Virus record (IMG/VR): IMGVR_UViG_2617270973_000006
Span: 1-11,777 of that record
Length of the DNA stretch: 11,777 bases
Strand: one strand, 5' to 3'
Source: a virus
Taxonomy: Duplodnaviria; Heunggongvirae; Uroviricota; Caudoviricetes
The notes under the pieces were generated by a model. The model saw only the letters and a program-made list of their open reading frames with translations, made no database searches and was not told the DNA's origin. This document shows, piece by piece, positions 248 to 11,777 of the stretch (within the stretch, counting starts at the first letter, position 1; every line of letters begins with the position of its first letter). The translations under genes were made by a program, and so were the position numbers.

Positions 248-327
248 GGATGTTAATGGCATTAGATATCCGGTTAGAGATGGATATCGTTGTTAATAAC
301 TCTAATTAATATGCCAATTGTTTACTA

Positions 328-360
328 AAAATTATTAAAAATGGGGCGTTGAGACGCCCC
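328..360 (-). terminator. Candidate rho-independent terminator about 140 nt 3' of the porin gene
   Basis: Perfect 7-bp GC-rich inverted repeat GGGGCGT/ACGCCCC (343-349 / 354-360) with a 4-nt loop; on the minus strand it is followed by ATTTTTAATAATTT (complement of 328-342). Confidence 0.4.
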
Positions 361-426
361 CAAAAATAAAGGGTAATATATAACAGAAGGTTTATATAGT
401 TAGAAGCAAGGTTGTGCTCCTAAAGG

Positions 427-473
427 AAGTGGCTTGAGGGAGCCACTTATATGTTGGGGAGGCAACGCCTCCC
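427..473 (-). terminator. Two tandem stem-loops immediately 3' of the porin stop codon (possible terminator or mRNA-stabilising hairpins)
   Basis: Perfect 8-bp inverted repeat AAGTGGCT/AGCCACTT (427-434 / 441-448) and perfect 7-bp GGGAGGC/GCCTCCC (457-463 / 467-473). Neither has a clean U-tract on the minus strand, hence low confidence as a terminator. Confidence 0.3.
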
Positions 474-498
474 GCAACATATCTTTTTCGTAATCAGA

Positions 499-1596
499 TT
501 AGAACTGGTAAACCAGACCTACAGCAACGATGTCATCAGTGCTTACACCGAGTGCTTTAGTGAAGTCATTTTTGTCAAGCAGGTTGATTTTGTAATCAAC
601 GAAAGTAGACATATTTTTGTTGAAGTAATAGGTTGCACCTACATCAACATATTTGACTAAGTCCTGATCGCCCCATACTCCAAGATCCTTACCTTTAGAT
701 TGCAGGTAAGCAACGGACGGACGCAGACCGAAATCGAACTGATATTGTGCAACAGCTTCGAAGTTTTGAGCTTTATTAGCAACGAAGTGATCAGCAAATA
801 CAGTCATATTCTGGGTTTCAGAATAGGTAGTGGCCAGGTAAATGTTGTTAGCGTCATATTTCAGACCTGCGGCCCAAACTTCTGCATTTTTACCGGAAGC
901 AAATACTTCAGGAAGAACTTTCCCTGCATTAACTTGAGTGTCGGTACGATCAGATTTCGCATAAGTTGCACCGATACCGAATCCTTCGTATTCATAGGTA
1001 GCAGAGAAACCGAAGCCATCACCGTTACCTTCGGTGTAGTTATCGAAATCGCTACGATCGTTTTTGCCTTGGTACTGAGCAGCAAAGTTCAGACCATCAA
1101 CCAGACCAAAGAAGTCGTTGTTACGATAGGTTGCAACACCAGTTGCACGTTGAGTCATGAACACGTCGGTTTGAGTCCAAGTGTCACCACCGAATTCTGG
1201 CAGGACGTCAGTCCACGCACCGATGTCGTATGCTACACCGTAGTTACGGCCGTAATCGATGGAGCCGTAGTCACCGAATTTCAGGCCAGCGAAGGCAAGA
1301 CGGGTTTTATCTTTGGAGGAACCTTGAGATTCAGCGCGGTTGCCTTTGAATTCATATTCCCACTGACCGAAACCAGTCAGTTGATCGTTGATTTGGGTTT
1401 CACCTTTGAAGCCAAGACGGGCATAAGTAGTATCACCATCATCTGCATCATTAGAGGAGAAGTAGTGCTTAGCATTAACTTTCCCGTACAGATCCAGCTT
1501 GTTACTGTCTTTATTATAAATTTCAGCTGCCTGAGCAGACATCGCCATCAGTACTGATGCAGCTACAGCAGAAATTGCCACTGTTAATTTTTTCAT
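499..1596 (-). CDS. nmpC: Outer-membrane general porin, NmpC/Lc (OmpC/OmpF/PhoE) family, prophage-encoded; 365 aa precursor
   Basis: Track ORF 499..1656; the real start is the internal ATG at 1596-1594 ([23 protein letters not shown] signal peptide then AEIYNKD...), preceded by a GGG-containing RBS. Porin hallmarks: [16 protein letters not shown] N-terminus, PEFGGD loop-3 motif, C-terminal ...VGLVYQF. Position between Q-side DNA and the holin mirrors nmpC in DLP12 and lc in PA-2. Confidence 0.9.
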
Positions 1597-2023
1597 CGTG
1601 AGCCCTTTTTTTGAACTATTATTAAAAAATGATGTCACTGCGCGATAAATATTCATCTAATCAATGTGATTATTTCAAGATGTAAGTTTTGGTTTCTCGT
1701 TTGATTTGTGAAGTAGATCTCTATTTTTATCTGAACTTTTTTCTATCGAATCCTATTCATGGCTCTTGGCTGAATAAAAATAAATCTATTAGCCAATTTA
1801 TATTAATGGCTGTTATTTATAAGTGCTCTATAATTTGAAGGTTCAATTTAAACCGGCTAAAAATAACACTGGAAATTATTTGTTGGTTATTTGTTGAGAT
1901 TTGCTTATGTATTTGTAGTGGTGTTTTCAATACTCGGTAGCATTCTCGCAAATATCATTTAGTGGTTTACGTACGTAAAAAATTGGTTATGCTGTTAAGA
2001 GTGGTTACTTCGTCACACAGCTT

Positions 2024-2056
2024 AAACCCGCCGTCGAGCGGGTTTTTCCATTTTTT
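2024..2056 (+). terminator. Rho-independent terminator upstream of the holin gene (candidate tR'-like late terminator or sRNA 3' end)
   Basis: AAACCCGC (2024-2031), loop CGTCGA, GCGGGTTT (2038-2045): a perfect 8-bp stem followed by TTCCATTTTTT (2046-2056). Confidence 0.5.
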
Positions 2057-2168
2057 GAGTCTCGATATTAGCTGATAACCCAATACCTGAGTTATTCACT
2101 GACTCCGAGTCTGTTACGTTTCGTAGTATTCCCTCAATTTACACCCGCTTTGTCTGCGAGGTGGGGTT

Positions 2169-2384
2169 ATGAAATCCATGGATAAGTTAACAACGGGTGT
2201 CGCCTATGGCACCTCAGCAGGTAGTGCCGGGTACTGGTTTTTACAGCTGCTAGATAAAGTCACGCCCTCACAGTGGGCGGCAATTGGAGTGCTGGGTAGC
2301 CTGGTATTTGGCCTGCTGACGTACCTGACAAACCTTTATTTCAAGATTAAAGAAGATAAGCGCAAGGCTGCGAGAGGTGAATAA
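2169..2384 (+). CDS. S: Class II holin (pinholin), phage 21 S21 family; 71 aa with MKSM dual start (antiholin Met1 / holin Met4)
   Basis: [71 protein letters not shown] closely resembles S21 / EssD as I recall it: two TM segments and a charged C-tail. Stop TAA overlaps the endolysin ATG (TAATG at 2382-2386). Confidence 0.9.
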
Positions 2385-2881
2385 TGCCTCCATCATTACG
2401 AAAAGCCGTTGCTGCTGCTATTGGTGGCGGAGCAATTGCTATAGCATCAGTGTTAATCACTGGCCCAAGTGGTAACGATGGTCTGGAAGGTGTCAGCTAC
2501 ATACCATACAAAGATATTGTTGGTGTATGGACTGTATGTCACGGGCATACAGGAAAAGACATCATGCTCGGTAAAACGTATACCAAAGCAGAATGCAAAG
2601 CCCTCCTGAATAAAGACCTTGCCACGGTCGCCAGACAAATTAACCCGTACATAAAAGTTGATATACCGGAAACAACGCGCGGCGCTCTTTACTCGTTCGT
2701 CTACAACGTGGGTGCTGGCAATTTCAGAACATCGACGCTTCTTCGCAAAATAAACCACGGTGATATCAAAGGCGCATGTGATCAGCTACGGCGCTGGACA
2801 TACGCTGGCGGTAATCAATGGAAAGGACTGATGACTCGCCGTGAGATTGAGCGTGAAGTCTGTTTGTGGGGGAAACAATGA
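2384..2881 (+). CDS. R: SAR (signal-arrest-release) endolysin, T4-lysozyme-like muramidase (phage 21 R21 / RrrD type), 165 aa
   Basis: N-terminal Gly/Ala-rich weakly hydrophobic SAR segment ([20 protein letters not shown]) followed by the E-x8-D-x5-T catalytic arrangement ([25 protein letters not shown]). Same length as the phage 21 endolysin; translationally coupled to S. Confidence 0.9.
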
Positions 2882-3345
2882 GCAGAGTAACCGCGATTAT
2901 CTCCGCTCTGGTTATCTGCATCATCGTCTGCCTGTCATGGGCTGTTAATCATTACCGTGATAACGCCATTACCTACAAAGCCCAGCGCGACAAAAATGTC
3001 AGAGAACTGAAGCTGGCGAACGCGGCAATTACTGACATGCAGATGCGTCAGCGTGATGTTGCTGCGCTCGATGCAAAATACACGAAGGAGTTAGCTGATG
3101 CGAAAGCTGAAAATGATGCTCTTCTGCGGAAGCTTGATAATGGTGGCAGGGTGCTCGTCAAAGGAAAATGCCCTGTGCCATCCTCTGCCGAAACCTCCAG
3201 CGCCTCCGGCATGGGCAATGATGCCACCGTCGAACTCTCTCCAGTTGCTGGACGAAACGTTCTCGATATCCGGGACGGAATTATCCGCGACCAAACAGCA
3301 CTGAGAACGCTTCAGGAATACATTAGGACGCAATGCCTTCGATGA
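2878..3345 (+). CDS. Rz: Rz i-spanin (inner-membrane spanin subunit), lambda type
   Basis: ATG at 2878 overlaps the endolysin stop (ATGA). The track ORF begins at an upstream GTG (2866), which I reject as the start. N-terminal TM helix ([20 protein letters not shown]), coiled-coil body, near-identical to lambda Rz as I recall it. Confidence 0.85.
3098..3304 (+). CDS. Rz1: Rz1 o-spanin (outer-membrane lipoprotein), embedded in the +1 frame of Rz
   Basis: AAGGAG RBS (3085-3090) 7 nt before ATG 3098; signal peptide with lipobox ([18 protein letters not shown]|C); proline-rich mature part ([16 protein letters not shown]) typical of Rz1; lies wholly inside Rz in another frame. Confidence 0.8.
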
Positions 3346-3520
3346 TAGCGATAATTTTACTCATCATCCTTCACATCTGGCTCTGTAGACAGGGTGGTGA
3401 TCACTTCTGGAGTAAATCCAGATTAAACATCTCATTGCTGATGCTTGATATTGAGCATCTGGCGCGCAGTAAGGGGCTGCGTTGAGATAAGAGCCAGTTC
3501 ATTACAAATACCAGGATTTA

Positions 3521-3545
3521 GCCTCGCATTCGCGGGGCTTTTTAT
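3521..3545 (+). terminator. Candidate rho-independent terminator downstream of the lysis cassette
   Basis: GCCTCGC (3521-3527), loop ATTC, GCGGGGC (3532-3538): 7-bp stem (six Watson-Crick pairs plus one G-U) followed by TTTTTAT. Confidence 0.45.
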
Positions 3546-3687
3546 ATCTGAATTTCACAGCGCATCTCACGCGCATATTAACGAGAGCCTTTCAGTAAGC
3601 GAGCCTGAGAAATGCCGTTATAGGTGGCGACCTCTCTCGGGCGGCTTTTCTGTGAGACAGGCTCACTTTCTAAAAGGTAAAGACGCT

Positions 3688-4212
3688 ATGAATAATCATT
3701 CAGTTATTCCAGCCTTCGACTTCCGAGAAATGGTGCAAGCCAAAAACGGAGAGGTCGTTACCACATCCAGAAAAATTGCCAAGTACTTCGGCAAGCGACA
3801 CGGTGATGTTCTCAGGAAAATCGAGCAGGTTAAGGCTGATTGCTCGCGTGAGTTTAGCCAACGCAATTTTGCGTCGGCTGATTATATCGATGAGCAGGGC
3901 AAGGTTCGCCCGATGTACAGCCTGACGAAAGATGGCTGGATCATGGTTGTGATGGGGTTCACCGGGAAAGCTGCTGCGGCAATCAAGGAGAGCTATATCG
4001 CAGCATTCAACTGGATGGCAGAACAACTGAGCCGCCGCATGGCAATTGGCGAAGAAATGCAGCACCGCTACGCCATCAAAGAAACACGCTCAAAGCTGAA
4101 AGGTACGATCGGCAGTCGGTTAATGAACGAACGGAAGAAAGAGAAGCGTGTCCTGGCTGTCGAGCATGAATACATCTTGCAGGTGACACAGCCTGAACTG
4201 CTGATTAATTGA
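3688..4212 (+). CDS. rha: Rha-family phage regulatory protein (pfam Phage_pRha-like), 174 aa
   Basis: Track ORF 3445..4212, but the credible start is ATG 3688 (MNNHSVIPAFD...) with an AAAAGG RBS. Rha signature stretch VTTSRKIAKYFGKRHGDVLRKI...MYSLTKDGWIMVVMGFTGKAAAAIKESYIAAFNWM. Occupies the slot where lambda carries bor. Confidence 0.75.
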   Translation: MNNHSVIPAFDFREMVQAKNGEVVTTSRKIAKYFGKRHGDVLRKIEQVKADCSREFSQRNFASADYIDEQGKVRPMYSLTKDGWIMVVMGFTGKAAAAIKESYIAAFNWMAEQLSRRMAIGEEMQHRYAIKETRSKLKGTIGSRLMNERKKEKRVLAVEHEYILQVTQPELLIN

Positions 4213-4514
4213 AGATGTCATTACAAAGCCTATCTACGGGGGGCTTGATAATGGCTTATACCCTGCACGGGATAACTTAACTGATATCCCTTTTAACGGA
4301 TAAAGGTATTCAAGCCTGACACATCATGCGCTGTATCGTCGCCGTATTCCCGCATTAACCATGACCGTAGCCCGACGGGGAATTCCTTCTGCGTGAGTGT
4401 GCGGGAATAATCAAAAACGATGCACACCGGGTTATTAACGCGTCAACTGAACGCGGGGTTGCTCTTCATGTCAGCCAGTCCGGTGCAGGGGTAGAAGAAA
4501 CCGGACGTTATGGT

Positions 4515-4925
4515 TTAGTGTGGAAACATTTGTGATGTGCTCTGTATGTTTTCAGTAAAGAGTAATGAATTATCAAAGGTATAGTAATATCTTTTTTGTT
4601 CGTGGATATTTGTAACCCACCGAAAAACTCCTGCTTTAGCAAGGTTTCTTCTGTATTCCTGAAATGTGATCTCTCTGGATTTCAGCTTATTAGAGGTCGT
4701 TTCTATAAGATGCCTATCCTTTGAAAATTTGACAGACACAATGTTTTTTAGGCCCTTTAATAACACTGTATTATCATTTTTTAATACAATATGAACATTC
4801 TCTGTGGCTAAATAGTAAATGTAATGTGAGACATTGTGACGTTTTAGCTCAGAATAAAACCATTGATAGTTTAAATCGTTTCGAACTTTATCAAATATTT
4901 GTTTAAAAATGACTACCTGATCCAT
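4515..4925 (-). CDS. DUF1398-family protein (YbcV/YdfO-like; homologue of the lambda right-end ORF annotated as a putative envelope protein); function unknown
   Basis: Track ORF 4515..4967 (GTG start); I favour ATG 4925 ([13 protein letters not shown]...), which has a GGAAGG RBS 7 nt upstream and gives 136 aa, the length I recall for YbcV. Visibly AT-rich relative to its neighbours. Family name is recalled, not searched. Confidence 0.65.
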
Positions 4926-4983
4926 AGATAAACCTTCCATGTGATATGAGGGGGGCGTAGTCTGCACGATTATCTAAATTGCT

Positions 4984-5217
4984 TCAATCTGGTCTGATCT
5001 GTTTTCTGAGCAATTCAGTAATGTCACTCTTTTCTTTGTTTGCTTCAGGAGAAACTCTTTTTTCTGAGCACAGTCTCCGGCGGCAGGCTTCAATGACCCA
5101 GGCTGAGAAATTCCCGGACCCTTTTTGATCAAGAGCGATGTTAATTTGTTCAATCATTTGGTTAGGAAAGCGGATGTTGCGGGTTGTTGTTCTGCGGGTT
5201 CTGTTCTTCGTTGACAT
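4984..5217 (-). CDS. Small DUF3950-family protein (YnfO/YlcI-like), predicted ribbon-helix-helix-like DNA-binding fold; function unknown
   Basis: 77-aa ORF with ATG at 5217-5215. MSTKNRTRRTTTRNIRFPNQMIEQINIALDQKGSGNFSAWVIEACRRRL has a basic N-tail, a beta strand and two helices, consistent with a CopG/Arc-like RHH. Sits immediately upstream of, and co-oriented with, the DUF1398 gene (16-bp gap), as in lambda and K-12 cryptic prophages. Confidence 0.65.
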   Translation of the reverse strand: MSTKNRTRRTTTRNIRFPNQMIEQINIALDQKGSGNFSAWVIEACRRRLCSEKRVSPEANKEKSDITELLRKQIRPD

Positions 5218-5379
5218 GAGGTTGTCCCGTATTCAGTGTCGCTGATTTGTATTGTCTGAAGTTGTTTTTACGTTAAGTTGATGCAGATCAATTAATACGA
5301 TACCTGCGTCATAATTGATTATTTGACGTGGTTTGATGGCGTAGATGCACGTTGTGACATGCAGATGATAATCATTATC

Positions 5380-5605
5380 ATTTTGCGGGTCCTTTCCGGC
5401 GATCCGACAGGTTACGGGGCGGCGACCTCGCGGGTTTTCGCTATTTATGAAAATTTTCCGGTTTAAGGCATTTCCGTTCTTCTTCGTCGTAACTTAATGT
5501 TTTTATTTAAAATACCCCCTGAAAAGAAAGGAAACGACAGGTGCTGAAAACGAGCTTTTGGGCCTCTGTCGTTTCCTTTCTCTGTTTTTGGCCGTGGAAT
5601 GAACA
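5380..5605 (+). other. Lambda-type cos packaging site (cosQ-cosN-cosB region) between the right-end genes and Nu1
   Basis: 5370-5416 matches the lambda right end (...GATGATAATCATTATCA...GGGTCCTTTCCGG.GATCCGACAGGTTACG) and 5417 onward matches the lambda left end (GGGCGGCGACCTCGCGGGTTTTCGCTATTTATGAAAATTTTCCGGTTTAAGGC...), up to the Nu1 start. From memory of the lambda sequence. Confidence 0.85.
5417..5428 (+). other. cosN: 12-nt cohesive-end sequence GGGCGGCGACCT (terminase nicking site)
   Basis: Exact match to the lambda 12-nt 5' overhang, flanked by lambda-like right-end and left-end sequence. Confidence 0.85.
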
Positions 5606-6130
5606 ATGGAAGTCAACAAAAAGCAGCTGGCTGACATTTTCGGTGCGAGTATCCGTACCATTCAGAACTGGCAGGAACAGGGAATGCCCGTTCTGCGAGG
5701 CGGTGGCAAGGGTAATGAGGTGCTTTATGACTCTGCCGCCGTTATAAGATGGTATGCCGAAAGGGATGCTGAAATTGAGAACGAAAAGCTGCGCCGGGAA
5801 GTTGAAGAACTGCGGCAGGCCAGCGAGACAGATCTCCAGCCAGGGACTATTGAGTACGAACGCCATCGACTTACGCGTGCGCAGGCCGACGCACAGGAGC
5901 TGAAAAATGCCAGAGACTCCGCTGAAGTGGTGGAAACCGCATTCTGTACTTTCGTGCTGTCGCGGATCGCAGGTGAAATTGCCAGTATTCTCGACGGGAT
6001 CCCCCTGTCGGTGCAGCGGCGTTTTCCGGAACTGGAAAACCGACATGTTGATTTCCTGAAACGGGATATCATCAAAGCCATGAACAAAGCAGCCGCGCTG
6101 GATGAACTGATACCTGACCACGCAGCGTAA
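5606..6130 (+). pseudogene. nu1: Terminase small subunit Nu1, C-terminally truncated by a deletion junction (about 170 lambda-like codons plus 4 novel codons, then stop)
   Basis: MEVNKKQLADIFGASIRTIQNWQEQGMPVLRGGGKGNEVLYDSAAVI... is near-identical to lambda gpNu1 through ...[14 protein letters not shown], then diverges (DHAA*) where the lambda protein continues into the gpA-interaction tail. The N-terminal winged-HTH cosB-binding domain is intact. Confidence 0.85.
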
Positions 6131-6140
6131 GGCGTGGGAT

Positions 6141-8609
6141 GTGCTCAGTGATTTCTGCTCGGCGATGCGCTGTATGCCGGTATGGAACGGGCAGACGCTG
6201 ACGTTCGTGCAGGACCGACCATCAGATAAGGTGTGGACCTATAACCGCAGTAATGTGGTGATGCCGGATGATGGCGCGCCGTTCCGCTACAGCTTCAGCG
6301 CCCTGAAGGACCGCCATAATGCCGTTGAGGTGAACTGGATTGACCCGAACAACGGCTGGGAGACGGCGACAGAGCTTGTTGAAGATACGCAGGCCATTGC
6401 CCGTTACGGTCGTAATGTCACGAAGATGGATGCCTTTGGCTGTACCAGCCGGGGGCAGGCACACCGCGCCGGGCTGTGGCTGATTAAAACGGAACTGCTG
6501 GAGACGCAGACCGTGGATTTCAGCGTGGGTGCTGAAGGGCTTCGCCATGTACCGGGCGATGTCATTGAAATCTGCGATGATGACTATGCCGGTATCAGCA
6601 CCGGTGGTCGCGTGCTGGCGGTGAACAGCCAGACCCGGACGCTGACGCTCGACCGTGAAATCACGCTGCCATCCTCCGGTACCACGCTGATAAGCCTGGT
6701 TGACGGAAGTGGTAATCCGGTCAGCGTGGAGGTTCAGTCCGTCACCGACGGACTTAAGGTGAAAGTGAACCGGGTTCCTGATGGCGTTGCAGAATACAGT
6801 GTGTGGGGGCTGAAGTTGCCGACGTTGCGTCAGCGCCTGTTCCGCTGTGTGAGTATCCGTGAGAACGATGACGGCACGTATGCCATCACTGCCGTGCAGC
6901 ATGTACCGGAAAAAGAAGCCATCGTGGATAACGGGGCGCACTTTGACGGCGACCAGAGCAGCACGGTGAATGGTGTCACGCCGCCAGCGGTGCAGCACCT
7001 GACCGCCGAAGTCACCGCAGACAGCGGGGAATATCAGGTGCTGGCGCGCTGGGACACGCCGAAGGTGGTGAAGGGCGTGAGCTTCCTGCTCCGTCTGACC
7101 GTAACAGCGGATGACAGCAGTGAGCGGCTGGTCAGCACGGCCCGGACGACGGAAACCACATACCGCTTCACGCAACTGGCGCTGGGGAACTACAGGCTGA
7201 CAGTCCGGGCGGTAAATGCGTGGGGGCAGCAGGGCGATCCGGCGTCGGTATCGTTCCGGATTGCCGCACCGGCAGCACCGTCGAGGATTGAGCTGACGCC
7301 GGGCTATTTTCAGATAACCGCCACGCCGCATCTTGCCGTTTATGACCCGACGGTACAGTTTGAGTTCTGGTTCTCGGAAAAGCGGATTACCGATATCAGG
7401 CAGGTTGAAACCACAGCACGCTATCTTGGCACGGCGCTGTACTGGATAGCCGCCAGTCTCAATATCAAACCGGGCCATGATTATTACTTTTATATCCGCA
7501 GTGTGAACACCGTTGGCAAATCGGCATTCGTGGAGGCTGTTGGTCAGCCGAGTGATGATGCATCCGGTTATCTGGATTTTTTCAAAGGCGAGATAGGGAA
7601 AACCCATCTGGCTCAGGAGCTGTGGACGCAGATTGATAACGGTCAGCTTGCGCCTGACCTGGCTGAAATCAGGACGTCCATTACGGATGTCAGCAATGAA
7701 ATCACGCAGACCGTCAATAAGAAACTGGAAGACCAGAGTGCGGCAATTCAGCAGATACAGAAGGTTCAGGTTGATACAAATAATAACCTGAACAGCATGT
7801 GGGCTGTGAAGCTGCAGCAGATGCAGGACGGACGCCTTTATATCGCGGGTATTGGTGCCGGTATTGAGAACACCCCTGACGGCATGCAGAGTCAGGTGCT
7901 GCTGGCGGCAGACAGGATTGCGATGATTAATCCTGCGAATGGCAACACAAAGCCGATGTTTGTTGGGCAGGGCGATCAGATATTCATGAACGAAGTGTTC
8001 CTGAAACGCCTGACGGCTCCCACCATTACCAGCGGCGGTAATCCTCCGGTATTTTCCCTGACACCGGACGGGCGGCTGACGGCGAAAAATGCCGATATCA
8101 GCGGTAACGTGAATGCGAACTCCGGGACGCTCAACAACGTCACGATTAACGAGAACTGTCGGGTTCTGGGAAAACTGTCCGCCAACCAGATTGAAGGCGA
8201 TCTCGTTAAAACAGTGGGCAAAGCTTTCCCCCGGGACTCCCGTGCACCGGAACGGTGGCCATCAGGGACCATCACCGTCAGGGTTTATGACGATCAGCCG
8301 TTTGACCGGCAGATTGTTATTCCGGCGGTGGCATTCAGCGGCGCTAAACATGAGCGGGAGAATAACGATATTTATTCGTCATACCGCCTGATAGTACGGA
8401 AAAACGGTGCTGAAATTTATAACCGTACCGCGCTGGATAATACGCTGATTTACAGTGGTGTTATTGATATGCCTGCCGGTCACGGTCACATGACACTGGA
8501 GTTTTCGGTGTCAGCATGGCTGGTAAATAACTGGTATCCCACAGCAAGTATCAGCGATTTGCTGGTTGTGGTGATGAAGAAAGCCACTGCAGGCATCACG
8601 ATTAGCTGA
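6141..8609 (+). pseudogene. J: Tail-tip / host-specificity protein J, 5'-truncated fragment (C-terminal roughly 820 codons of an about 1130-codon gene) fused downstream of the Nu1 remnant
   Basis: Track ORF begins at a GTG. Product ...[24 protein letters not shown]...[20 protein letters not shown]... is collinear with lambda gpJ from about residue 310 onward; no J N-terminus and no RBS. The same frame is open back to a stop at 6108-6110. The central and C-terminal receptor-binding parts diverge from lambda J. Confidence 0.85.
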
Positions 8610-8627
8610 ATTTTATAACCCAGATAC

Positions 8628-8652
8628 GGGCGCCAGAAATGGCGCCTTTTTT
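8628..8652 (+). terminator. Rho-independent terminator between J and lom
   Basis: GGCGCC (8629-8634), loop AGAAAT, GGCGCC (8641-8646), followed by TTTTTT (8647-8652). Confidence 0.6.
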
Positions 8653-8676
8653 ATTGCAGAAAAGCGAGAGGTAATT

Positions 8677-9276
8677 ATGCGTAAATTATGTGCTGTTATT
8701 TTGTCCGCAGCCATCTGTCTGTCCGTATCCGGTGCGCCTGCATGGGCGTCTGAACATCAGTCCACACTGAGCGCAGGGTATCTTCATGCCCGTACGAACG
8801 CTCCCGGCAGCGATAATCTGAACGGGATTAACGTGAAATACCGTTATGAGTTTACGGACACGCTGGGGCTGATTACGTCCTTCAGTTATGCCAATGCTGA
8901 GGATGAGCAAAAAACGCACTACAGCGATACCCGCTGGCATGAAGATTCCGTGCGTAACCGCTGGTTCAGCGTGATGGCAGGGCCGTCTGTGCGCGTGAAT
9001 GAATGGTTCAGCGCGTATGCGATAGCGGGTATGGCTTACAGCCGTGTGTCGACCTTCTCCGGGGATTATCTCCGCGTAACTGACAACAAGGGGAAAACGC
9101 ACGATGTGCTGACCGGAAGTGATGACGGTCGCCACAGCAACATGTCTCTGGCGTGGGGGGCTGGCGTGCAGTTTAACCCGACCGAATCCGTGGCCATTGA
9201 TATTGCTTATGAAGGCTCCGGCAGTGGTGACTGGCGCACTGCCGGTTTCATCGTGGGTGTCGGTTATAAGTTCTGA
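8677..9276 (+). CDS. lom: Lom-like outer-membrane beta-barrel protein (Ail/Lom/PagC family), 199 aa
   Basis: Signal peptide MRKLCAVILSAAICLSVSGAPAWA; the C-terminal half (GINVKYRYE...SVMAGP...AYEGSGSGDWRTAGFIVGVGYKF) matches lambda Lom almost exactly as I recall it; RBS GAGAGG upstream; sits after J as in lambda. Confidence 0.9.
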   Translation: MRKLCAVILSAAICLSVSGAPAWASEHQSTLSAGYLHARTNAPGSDNLNGINVKYRYEFTDTLGLITSFSYANAEDEQKTHYSDTRWHEDSVRNRWFSVMAGPSVRVNEWFSAYAIAGMAYSRVSTFSGDYLRVTDNKGKTHDVLTGSDDGRHSNMSLAWGAGVQFNPTESVAIDIAYEGSGSGDWRTAGFIVGVGYKF

Positions 9277-9302
9277 TTAGCCAGGTAACACAGTGTTATG
9301 AC

Positions 9303-9330
9303 AGCCCGCCGGTTCAGGCGGGCTTTTTTG
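9303..9330 (+). terminator. Rho-independent terminator downstream of lom
   Basis: AGCCCGCC (9303-9310), loop GGTTCA, GGCGGGCT (9317-9324): perfect 8-bp stem followed by TTTTTT (9325-9330). Confidence 0.65.
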
Positions 9331-9340
9331 TGGGGGGAAT

Positions 9341-9820
9341 ATGGCAGTACGGATTTCAGGTGTACTGAAAGATGGCGCAGGTAAGCCGATACAAAACTGC
9401 ACCATTCAGCTAAAGGCCAGGCGCAACAGCACCACGGTGGTGGTGAACACAGTGGCCTCAGAAAACCCGGATGAAGCCGGGCGTTACAGCATGGACGTTG
9501 AGTACGGTCAGTACAGCGTTATTCTGTTGGTGGAAGGATTCCCGCCGTCACATGCCGGGATCATCACCGTGTATGAAGATTCCCAACCCGGTACGCTGAA
9601 TGATTTTCTCGGTGCCATGACGGAGGATGATGCCCGTCCTGAGGCACTGCGCCGTTTTGAACTGATGGTGGAAGAGGTGGCGCGTAACGCGTCCGCAGTG
9701 GCACAGAACACGGCAGCCGCGAAGAAGTCAGCCGGCGATGCCGGCACATCTGCCCGTGAGGCGGCAATCCGCGGCAACGCGTGCCGAAACAGCGGCAAAA
9801 CGGGCAGAGGATATTGCTGA
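9341..9820 (+). pseudogene. stf: Side tail fibre (Stf), N-terminal fragment; reading frame lost near 9775-9795
   Basis: MAVRISGVLKDGAGKPIQNCTIQLKARRNSTTVVVNTV...FELMVEEVARNASAVAQ is collinear with the lambda Stf N-terminus for about 143 residues, then reads an unrelated tail (RGNACRNSGKTGRGYC*) while Stf homology continues in another frame. Confidence 0.75.
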
Positions 9821-11471
9821 TGCCGTATCTCTGGAAGATGCGAGTACGACGAAAAAAGGTGTGGTTCAGCTTAGTAGTGCAACCAACAGCACGTCTGAAA
9901 CGCAGGCTGCAACGCCGAAAGCAGTAAAGGCAGCATATGACCTTGCTAACGCAAAATATACCGCTCAGGACGCAACGACGGCACGAAAAGGGATAGTTCA
10001 GCTCAGTAGCGCCACTAACAGCCCGTCTGAAACGCTGGCTGCGACACCAAAAGCGGTTAAGGCGGTAATGGATGAAACGAACAAGAAAGCGCCCTTAAAT
10101 AGTCCTGCACTGACCGGAACGCCAACAACGCCAACTGCGCCAAAAGGTACTAATAATACTCAGATCGCAAGTACGGCTTATGTGATGGCCGCGATTGCCG
10201 CCCTTGTAGACTCGTCGCCTGACGCACTGAATACGCTGAACGAGTTAGCGGCGGCGCTGGGCAACGACCCGAATTTTGCGACCACCATGACTAACGCGCT
10301 TGCGGGTAAGCAACCGAAAGATGCCACCCTGACGGCGCTGGCCGGGCTTGCTACTGCGGCAGACAGGTTTCCGTATTTTACGGGGAATGATGTCGCCAGC
10401 CTGGCAACCCTGACAAAAGTCGGGCGGGATATTCTTGCGAAATCGACCGTTGCTGCCGTTATCGAATACCTCGGTTTACAGGAAACGGTAAACAGGGCCA
10501 GGAACGCCGTGCAAAAGAATGGCGATACCTTGTCCGGTGGGCTTACTTTTGAAAACGACTCAATCCTTGCCTGGATTAGAAATACTGACTGGGCAAAGAT
10601 TGGTTTTAAAAATAATGCCGACAGCGACACTGATTCATACATGTGGTTTGAAACAGGCGACAACGGCAATGAATATTTCAAATGGAGAAGCCGCCAGAGC
10701 ACCACAACAAAAGACCTGATGACTCTTAAATGGGATGCTTTGTCTGTCCTTGTTAAAGCCCTTTTCAGCAGTGAAGTAAAAATATCGACAGTCAATGCAC
10801 TGAGGATATTTAATTCATCTTTTGGTGCTATTTTTTGTCGTTCTGAAGAATGCCTGCATATCATCCCTACACGAGAGAATGAGGGAGAAAATGGTGATAT
10901 AGGGCCACTACGCCCCTTTACGCTTAATCTCAGAACTGGTCGGATAAGCATGGGGCATGGTCTTGATGTTACAGGGGATATATTTGCAAACCGTTTTGCA
11001 ATTAACAGTAGTACCGGCATGTGGATTCATATGCGTGACCAGAATGTTATTTTGGGACGCAATGCGGTATCCACCGATGGTGCGCAGGCATTACTTCGTC
11101 AGGACCACGCTGATCGCAAATTTATGATTGGTGGACTGGGGAATAAGCAATTTGGCATCTACATGATTAATAACTCAAGGACAGCCAATGGCACCGATGG
11201 TCAGGCGTACATGGACAACAATGGCAACTGGCTTTGCGGTGCGCAAGTTATTCCCGGCAATTATGGTAATTTTGACTCACGTTATGTGAGAGATGTCCGA
11301 CTTGGTACACGTGTTGTTCAGACTATGCAAAAAGGCGTGATGTATGAGAAATCAGGTCATGCAATTACGGGGCTTGGCATTATCGGTGCAGTTGATGGCG
11401 ATGATCCGGCAGTATTCAGACCAATACAAAAATACATCAATGGCACATGGTATAACGTCGTACAGGTGTAA
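9738..11471 (+). pseudogene. stf: Side tail fibre (Stf), distal portion in a +1-shifted frame; includes the conserved fibre motif and a non-lambda C-terminal domain
   Basis: From about 9768 this frame reads ...AAKRAEDIADAVSLEDASTTKKGVVQLSSATNSTSETQAATPKAVK...NTLNELAAALGNDPNFATTMTNALAGKQPKDATLTALAGL..., collinear with lambda Stf after its Ala/Ser-rich repeat region; the last roughly 300 residues are unlike lambda (no His-rich GAHAH repeats). The first about 10 codons (MPAHLPVRRQ) are out-of-frame sequence. Confidence 0.7.
9852..10064 (+). repeat. Diverged tandem duplication (period about 132 nt) of the conserved tail-fibre motif K-G-[IV]-V-Q-L-S-S-A-T-N-S-x-S-E-T-x-A-A-T-P-K-A-V-K
   Basis: Copy 1 about 9852-9938 (KKGVVQLSSATNSTSETQAATPKAVKA) and copy 2 about 9984-10064 (RKGIVQLSSATNSPSETLAATPKAVKA); by eye roughly 80 percent nucleotide identity. 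Lambda Stf has a single copy, as I recall. Confidence 0.7.
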
Positions 11472-11474
11472 TTT

Positions 11475-11777
11475 ATGCAGCATTTAAAAAATATTAAGTC
11501 TGGAAATCCAAAAACAAAAGAACAATATCAGCTAACAAAGAATTTTGATGTTATCTGGTTATGGTCCGAAGACGGAAAAAACTGGTATGAGGAAGTGAAA
11601 AACTTTCAGCCAGACACAATAAAGATTGTTTACGATGCAAATAATATTATTGTCGCCATCACCAAAGATGCCTCCACGCTTAACCCTGAAGGTTATAGCG
11701 TCGTTGAGGTTCCAGATATTACAGCCAACCGCCGCGCTGATGATTCCGGTAAGGCGAATACCTGTAATAAACCTTGA
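11475..11777 (+). CDS. tfa: Tail fibre assembly protein (Tfa) N-terminal domain; ORF stops after 100 codons, so probably truncated
   Basis: [41 protein letters not shown]...[12 protein letters not shown] resembles the N-terminal half of E. coli TfaE/TfaQ-type chaperones as I recall them; starts 3 nt after the stf stop. Full-length Tfa proteins are about 190-200 aa; here a stop falls at 11775-11777, the window edge. Confidence 0.7.

Follow-up and report, generated by a model that had tools for sequence, protein, structure and literature searches.

The side tail fiber gene (stf) of a defective lambda-like prophage was killed by an 881-bp internal deletion. The explanation that best accounts for the evidence as a whole, and which we consider quite likely, is that the scar of this deletion was copied from a remnant of the Qin prophage. 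The gene lies within the 11,777-nt stretch of DNA analyzed in this study (the window). Judged from its sequence, the stf locus is a pseudogene derived from a lambda-type side tail fiber gene, not a functional member of that family, and stf would be without function here because no virion remains to which a fiber could attach.

The stf pseudogene and the lost shaft

Positions 248–11777 of the window matched the chromosome of Escherichia coli F1005 (NZ_OY754353.1) with 3 mismatches in 11,530 nt, and the F1005 counterpart of the window is a defective lambda-like prophage adjoining ybhB-bioA, which is the lambda attachment region (att-lambda). Positions 1–247, for which no match was present in F1005, are the end of an IS2 element inserted in quuD (reverse-strand translation, 52 residues). 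Because this IS2 end is absent from F1005, the window represents a different isolate of the F1005 lineage.

The best intact relative of the broken gene is the 1003-codon, 3012-nt stf of E. coli BS15R-A, which is part of a seemingly complete tail module at the same chromosomal site. The breakpoint was set by blastn and by direct reconstruction against this intact locus (L001). Removal of nt 428–1308 from the BS15R-A stf reproduced the window stf with 1 mismatch in 2131 nt, and the F1005 gene with 0 mismatches over the same length. The loss is real and not a chance resemblance, because, save one SNP, neither arm differs from the intact gene at any base. The missing segment is 881 nt (3 × 293 + 2, or 293 2/3 codons), and since 881 mod 3 = 2 and the domains are spread over two open reading frames, the original prediction of an inactivating internal deletion that is not a whole number of codons long was confirmed. 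It had put the break near 9773 and the return of homology near 9795; alignment to BS15R-A, the kind of analysis proposed for defining the breakpoint, bore out the change of frame and moved its exact position to between 9767 and 9768.

The whole pseudogene occupies 9341–11471 on the + strand, in two frames split at this breakpoint. The left arm (9341..9767, +) contains native codons 1–142 and the first base of codon 143, is 100% identical to nt 1–427 of the BS15R-A stf, and encodes the tail-attachment domain and the start of the coiled coil. The deletion junction (9766..9768, +) reads GAGGCGGCAA on its left and TCCGCGGCAACGCG on its right, the AA at 9766–9767 being ambiguous. ORF1 (9341..9820) encodes the complete N-terminal domain, further residues up to TSAREAA, and then 17 out-of-frame residues (IRGNACRNSGKTGRGYC) before a TGA at 9818–9820. 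Its residues 1–134 match PF08400, the prophage tail-fiber N-terminal domain, over positions 1–134 of 134 (E=5e-74), and by translation its out-of-frame tail (9768..9820, +) consists of 17 junk codons, the first of which spans 9767–9769.

ORF2 (9738..11471) is in the +1 frame and begins with 10 spurious residues, followed by SAATRAETAAKRAEDIA. The spurious start (9738..9767, +) is an ATG with nine further codons (MPAHLPVRRQ), produced by reading the left arm in the +1 frame; in intact alleles these positions are read in the other frame, and the ATG at 9738 is not a native start. The right arm (9768..11471, +) retains the native frame as codons 437–1003 (567 codons) plus the stop, with no native start, and encodes the end of the coiled coil, two Phage_fiber_2 repeats (PF03406), a Gp34-like trimerization domain (PF21446) and the distal receptor-binding part. 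It is identical to nt 1309–3012 of the BS15R-A stf save one SNP at window position 10836, where CGC (Arg) is changed to TGC (Cys); this SNP is private to the window, and F1005 has the BS15R-A base. ORF1 and ORF2 overlap by 83 nt, and ORF2 is open for 577 codons.

In the intact relative BS15R-A, PF08400, PF03406 and the Gp34 trimerization domain are all encoded in one open reading frame, whereas the window splits them over two. Among the features of a lambda-type Stf, the window has kept the N-terminal domain, the fiber repeats and the distal part, with a truncated tfa following, and has lost the proximal coiled-coil shaft and the single uninterrupted reading frame. The F1005 stf was annotated by PGAP as 'frameshifted; incomplete'.

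The lost peptide of 294 residues includes 112 Ala, 74 Ser and 37 Thr. Residues 102–393 of lambda Stf form the proximal coiled coil (Ur-lambda structure paper, PMC12617516), and the lost segment is almost the whole of the corresponding Ala/Ser/Thr-rich shaft. An estimate of about 220 absent codons relative to lambda had been given earlier, which was of the right order; the size and the comparator were not retained, the loss being about 189 codons relative to lambda and about 294 relative to the parent allele, as found in BS15R-A. The earlier figure arose because the comparison was made with the shorter shaft of lambda: the span from KKSAGDA to KRAEDIA is 319 codons in BS15R-A and 214 codons in lambda, and 76 nt in the window. 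Lambda was rejected as a size comparator because the shaft of the true parent allele is 105 codons longer. Other stf alleles have 749 or 545 extra nt where BS15R-A has 881 (match spans); the differences from 881, 132 and 336 nt, are both multiples of three, as would be expected if these were in-frame length variants. The window copy, which has lost this segment completely, is out of frame.

The deletion is young. ORF2 is still open because the deletion is recent, as is indicated by the 0 substitutions between F1005 and BS15R-A, and its openness is no sign of selection.

Decay of the surrounding prophage

The F1005 prophage contains, in order, quuD, a porin gene, essD, rrrD, an Rz-like gene, rha, Nu1, a J fragment, lom, the stf pieces, a tfa fragment, an inverted tail-fiber fragment and a truncated invertase gene. 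All head genes and most tail genes are gone. The J (tail tip) fragment (6111..8609, +) is missing codons 1–328 and runs on directly from the end of Nu1; in the alignment, the window from 6114 onward corresponds to the BS15R-A locus from L001 position 6814 onward, and J starts at L001 5830. The PGAP annotation describes the fragment as 'missing N-terminus', and its Pfam matches are present. The fusion of Nu1 to J, near 6111–6122, represents a further deletion with short microhomology. The truncated tfa (11475..11753, +), which follows stf, comprises the first 93 of 175 codons and is fused at 11753 via an AAG microhomology to the inverted tail-fiber fragment, with a loss of about 984 nt relative to BS15R-A.

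The view that virion genes of this prophage are decaying while membrane and lysis genes stay intact was upheld by the truncations of J and tfa and by the open lom, porin and lysis genes in the window. The inclusion of Nu1 (5606–6130) among the lesions is marginal, as the Pfam model was matched end to end (1–164 of 164) and only the last few codons are altered.

From position 9243, inside lom, to 11753, the window differs from BS15R-A by the deletion and one SNP only. In contrast, J and lom upstream show 115 differing positions, and the chromosomal flank beyond the prophage has diverged by 1.3%. This contrast marks the stf-tfa module as a mosaic block of recent mobility, and it was also found in strain ET358, in a prophage adjoining uspF-ompN.

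The Qin scar and the origin of the deletion

An identical deletion of nt 428–1308 was found in the diverged stf remnant of the Qin prophage of F1005, about 0.8 Mb from the att-lambda copy. The Qin scar is present in four genomes (F1005, 1409, ET358 and NMBU-W12E19) and in one metagenome contig. In the Qin copies of 1409, ET358 and NMBU-W12E19 the junction was matched in one piece at 98%, and the F1005 Qin copy has 100% identity over 801 nt to that Qin scar sequence. In the Qin remnant, a terminase fragment is fused to a J fragment, which in turn continues in frame into stf from stf nt 374, so that the stf N-terminus is truncated; the fusion contains GAGGCGGCAATCCGCGGCAACGCGCGCC, and the same junction follows 54 nt beyond the fusion point. 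The closest intact relatives of the Qin allele, among them SC467 and many genes with the annotation stfR, are longer by exactly 881 nt. SC467 carries a complete J-lom-stf-tfaQ-pinQ module at the Qin site, and removal of nt 428–1308 from the SC467-type stf gave the F1005 Qin remnant with 26 mismatches in 2097 nt. The presence of an identical scar in the Qin remnant of the same lineage was not part of the original prediction.

The two scar alleles are 88% identical over 228 nt around the junction and cannot be aligned farther downstream. They belong to different allelic backgrounds, each keeping its own bases at positions +15 (T or C) and +21 (A or G) from the junction, with the marker types judged from four Qin-type and three BS15R-A-type intact alleles. 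The tract of the window that is perfectly identical to the Qin scar (9714..9781, +) is 68 nt long, 54 nt to the left of the junction and 14 nt to the right. Its left limit is set by the J fusion, and the first allele-specific differences past it are at 9782 (T vs C) and 9788 (A vs G), where the att-lambda copy keeps the recipient-type bases. The scar itself is the only allele-specific marker inside the tract.

The distribution of the junction was examined with a 120-nt query, which had matches in 2,648 of 5,426 complete E. coli genomes. Coverage of at least 80% was obtained in 7 records only: F1005, three alleles with a 545-nt insert, in which the query was matched in two pieces, and three Qin copies. 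In the att-lambda context, F1005 was the only one of the 5,426 genomes to carry the junction, in addition to the window. None of the INPHARED phage records covered at least 80% of the query, and the exact junction 23-mer was absent from IMG/VR and from the GTDB representatives.

Several other candidates were rejected. Phage mEp460 and strain LSN03-016011/A matched positions 1–79 of the query at 88.8%, but these are ordinary intact left arms (GCGGCAACCCATGC), and their 19-nt overrun past the junction is a chance similarity in Ala-codon repeats. A metagenome match (L009) had the exact 23-mer within an unrelated, high-GC metalloprotease-like ORF with nothing else similar, and was also considered to be due to chance. 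Strain ET358 was rejected as a direct ancestor; it has a second, BS15R-A-type stf that is intact over the 881-bp segment, but because this gene is sited at uspF-ompN, not at att-lambda, it is silent on the ancestral state of the att-lambda locus.

The sole complete genome in which the att-lambda scar was found also belongs to the four that carry the Qin scar, a co-occurrence for which the chance is about 4/5426. The isolate from which the window was derived is assumed, from its near identity to F1005, to carry the Qin scar as well. Over 12.1 kb of the Qin locus and adjoining chromosome, 8 mismatches separate F1005 from 1409 and 3 separate it from ET358, and this small number suggests that the Qin scar has descended vertically.

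Taken together, these sequence comparisons make it likely that the att-lambda scar is a copy of the pre-existing Qin scar, made by ectopic recombination. Because the shared tract contains no informative marker, copying is deduced from the identical endpoints and the co-occurrence only. Transfer from Qin to att-lambda appears somewhat more probable than the opposite direction. It is favored because the Qin scar is found in four genomes, in keeping with vertical descent, and the att-lambda scar only in F1005 and the window, and because the endpoint microhomology is modestly better in the Qin-type background, where the endpoints are GGCGG(C)AA and GGCGGAA (7/8, one bulged base). The right endpoint in the BS15R-A background is GCTGCTGAA, and the exact microhomology at the att-lambda junction is AA only.

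In the proposed sequence of events, the deletion would have arisen once, most probably in a Qin-type allele, and the scar would then have been copied into the att-lambda stf by ectopic homologous recombination, either as gene conversion or as Qin-templated break repair. A break inside the 881-bp segment of the att-lambda gene might have been followed by trimming of the non-homologous ends to the junction and by repair from the Qin template; such repair would copy the scar exactly and leave the recipient's own +15 and +21 bases in place. Alternatively, a Red or RecT-type recombinase acting at infection or induction may have been the agent. Recombination between lambda and Qin/Rac stf-tfa occurs at about 2e-6, is largely Red-beta dependent and inactivates the side fibers, and about 30 bp of homology is sufficient for Red-beta (De Paepe et al. 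2014, PMC3945230). In the present case the homology available for copying is 54 nt on the left and, on the right, 14 perfect nt, about 50 nt at 96% or about 230 nt at 88%, and the maximum marker-free patch that could be copied is 68 nt (9714..9781). Against copying stands the 14 nt of perfect homology on one side, which is under the usual minimum for RecA-dependent exchange. With such short right homology, the model needs either heteroduplex extension past the mismatches with recipient-favoring repair, or a Red/RecT- or SDSA-type event.

Substrates that might have generated the deletion in place were also sought. The original prediction had attributed the deletion to recombination between short internal repeats, an origin that found little support for the att-lambda copy, as the endpoints share AA only and no long tandem array is present: Tandem Repeats Finder gave only micro-arrays of 9–12 nt at other places in stf. 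Among direct repeats, the one closest to the endpoints, GCGGCAA(C), is offset by 10 nt and would give an in-frame deletion of 891 nt, which was not observed. A deletion at the base of a hairpin was rejected for inverted repeat I2 (L001 10482–10506 and 11355–11379), which is 72% complementary and whose stem base is off the endpoints because only one of its two arms falls within the deletion. The pin genes sit near the stf locus, and invertases of the Pin/Gin type cross over at a central AA dinucleotide. An invertase-mediated deletion was rejected, as the junction flanks look, by eye, unlike hix or gix half-sites.

A rival account has two independent deletions: the same 881 bp would have been lost once in each gene at a mechanistic hot spot, for example by slipped mispairing or through a structure formed by the GC-rich repeats of Ala codons. 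Each scar would then have arisen in place, in keeping with the allele-specific SNPs that it retains no more than 15 nt from the junction, and the endpoint sequences are indeed the same or nearly the same in both backgrounds. This alternative is nevertheless unlikely. The region allows for about 36,000 distinct deletions with a microhomology of 2 nt or more, hundreds of them with 5–14 nt; recurrence of one with AA only, at a junction absent from other lineages, is improbable for this reason. Moreover, a hot spot would be expected to have produced the junction among the approximately 2,600 other stf-bearing genomes, whereas it was found only in the Qin-scar lineage, and no stem is based at the endpoints, I2 being the nearest inverted repeat. 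Still less probable, in our judgment, is that excision of nt 428–1308 is a recurrent, directed and precise hot-spot event that removes the shaft and switches off side-fiber production, although such recurrent excision would also account for the own-allele SNPs within 15 nt of each junction.

It was also considered whether the scar at att-lambda might be an assembly or polishing artifact, in which the cell would still have an unbroken att-lambda stf and mis-assignment of Qin-scar reads would have collapsed the 881 bp. The two copies do share 68 identical nt across the junction; however, no Qin read can supply the att-lambda-type bases at +15 and +21, the assemblies of two different isolates agree, and the intact right arm and the junction share only about 16 nt, which is too short for merging in an assembly graph. 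An artifact of this kind is very improbable. A homopolymer sequencing error, raised earlier as a possible cause, was excluded by the size of the event, because a loss of 881 bp is common to two isolates that are distinguished by the IS2 element and three SNPs and both carry the scar.

The idea that the two ORFs form a functional split gene, expressed by a programmed +1 frameshift in the 9768–9820 overlap or by reinitiation at the ATG at 9738, is hardly credible despite the ORF overlap, the open ORF2 and a loose resemblance, noted by eye, of the ORF1 stop AGAGGA-TAT-TGC-TGA to the prfB site AGGGGG-TAT-CTT-TGA: the two-frame arrangement is absent from the phage records, IMG/VR, the GTDB representatives and all non-scar copies in the 5,426 genomes, inspection of 9768–9820 showed that the P-site codon UGC is unable to re-pair in the +1 frame as GCU, the Shine-Dalgarno-like string is native coding sequence for AEDIA and is shared by every intact allele, the openness of ORF2 is explained by the recent deletion, and the prophage has no tail to carry a fiber. 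That the product would be a working short-shaft fiber or a free receptor-binding protein is equally hard to credit. Because the junction is absent outside the scar copies, the two-frame arrangement represents a scar rather than a conserved programmed frameshift; the efficient +1 frameshifting that had been named as a competing possibility was thus left without support.

Significance and comparison with known systems

The stf lesion is ordinary prophage decay. The window adds one more decayed prophage tail-fiber gene, whose copy in the sister strain had already been flagged as frameshifted by the RefSeq pipeline. What modest value it has comes from the twin scar: two diverged alleles, about 0.8 Mb apart and sharing 68 nt of identity around the junction, carry an identical 881-bp deletion. 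If the scar was copied, it would be a natural example of defective prophages exchanging inactivating lesions via very short homology, and it would serve as a warning that lesions in prophage pseudogenes, when taken as markers of phylogeny or decay rate, need not each be an independent event.

The cryptic prophages of E. coli K-12 contain comparable stf remnants, stfQ in Qin, stfE in e14 and stfR in Rac, which are truncated or frameshifted relics in elements that have kept lom, porin or lysis genes. The breakpoints of these remnants are different, and the 428–1308 scar was found only in the F1005-related lineage.

In lambda PaPa, stf (orf-401/orf-314) is, in comparison with Ur-lambda, likewise split into two frames, with no side fibers and with the N-terminal domain and the distal ORFs still recognizable; this frameshift has been described (PMC12617516), and the record of phage HK630 carries the remark 'missing C (relative to sequence of Ur-lambda)'. 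Lambda PaPa, however, lost a single base distally and keeps the whole coiled coil, whereas the window stf lost 881 bp at codon 143 and is colinear in its distal part. Lambda PaPa is also a viable phage, whereas the element in the window is without virion genes.

The exchanges described by De Paepe et al. (PMC3945230), in which a diverged Qin/Rac stf recombined with a lambda-type stf via short identity and the side fiber was inactivated, represent the process proposed here for the twin scar. Those exchanges were observed in a laboratory assay with selectable cassettes and involved kilobase-scale patches, whereas the present case is a natural one, inferred from the two scars, in which the deletion would have been carried on a patch of at most about 68–84 nt.

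Lesions of the window outside stf

Head genes were all deleted in the window, as were most of the tail genes, and the remaining J fragment (6111-8609), from which the first 328 codons are absent, was joined straight onto Nu1 (5606-6130). The junction is located at about 6111-6122, inside a common ...CTGACCAC... stretch, and despite this fusion to J the Nu1 open reading frame still matched PF07471 across 164 of 164 positions.

An IS2 end, encoding the start of InsC on the reverse strand, occupies positions 1-247, and the insertion site of this element is the antiterminator gene quuD. Since quuD is uninterrupted at the corresponding site in the sister strain F1005, the late-gene antiterminator is likewise knocked out in the isolate from which the window derives.

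At the other end, tfa and an inverted fragment were found at 11475-11777, with tfa ending after 93 codons and an AAG microhomology joining it, at 11753, to the inverted C-terminal fragment of a tail fibre. Compared with BS15R-A, an E. coli strain with an intact stf, the window has lost approximately 984 nt from the invertible segment, and in F1005 a 195-nt invertase remnant is located downstream of the tfa/inverted-fibre junction.

Mosaic boundary in lom and sequence of the stf right arm

Comparison with BS15R-A identified a sharp mosaic boundary within lom. Upstream of this boundary (6114-9242) the two sequences have 115 differences (about 3%), whereas downstream (9243-11753) they are identical except for the 881-bp deletion in stf and one SNP, even though the host chromosomes beside the prophage differ by 1.3% between the window lineage and BS15R-A. 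The SNP, at 10836 in the dead stf right arm, changes CGC to TGC (Arg to Cys) and is private to the window, being present in neither F1005 nor BS15R-A.

The stop context of ORF1, which encodes the left part of stf and an out-of-frame tail, reads AGAGGA-TAT-TGC-TGA (9805-9820) and bears a superficial likeness to the +1 frameshift site of prfB. This likeness was judged coincidental, because every intact allele carries the string as its native sequence coding for AEDIA.

Related stf copies in the Qin remnant and in strain ET358

The Qin remnant of F1005 (L005, 4121-8398), found in the same arrangement in two further sequences (L003 and L004), is a fusion chain in which a terminase large subunit fragment is followed by a J fragment, stf and the 881-bp scar. 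Its stf part begins at nt 374, in frame with the J fragment; 3' of the scar it aligns colinearly, apart from one gap, with the intact allele of SC467, and it is followed by tfaQ and pinQ, both intact.

The stf-tfa-invertible module shared by the window and BS15R-A is also carried in strain ET358 (L017) by a prophage adjoining uspF-ompN, in which the BS15R-A-type stf (L014/L017, 14042-17053) is intact across the 881-bp segment. PGAP annotates this stf as two pieces, a pseudogene (14042-15656) and a hypothetical gene (15650-17053), and its putative lesion is another one, distinct from the 881-bp scar and farther downstream.
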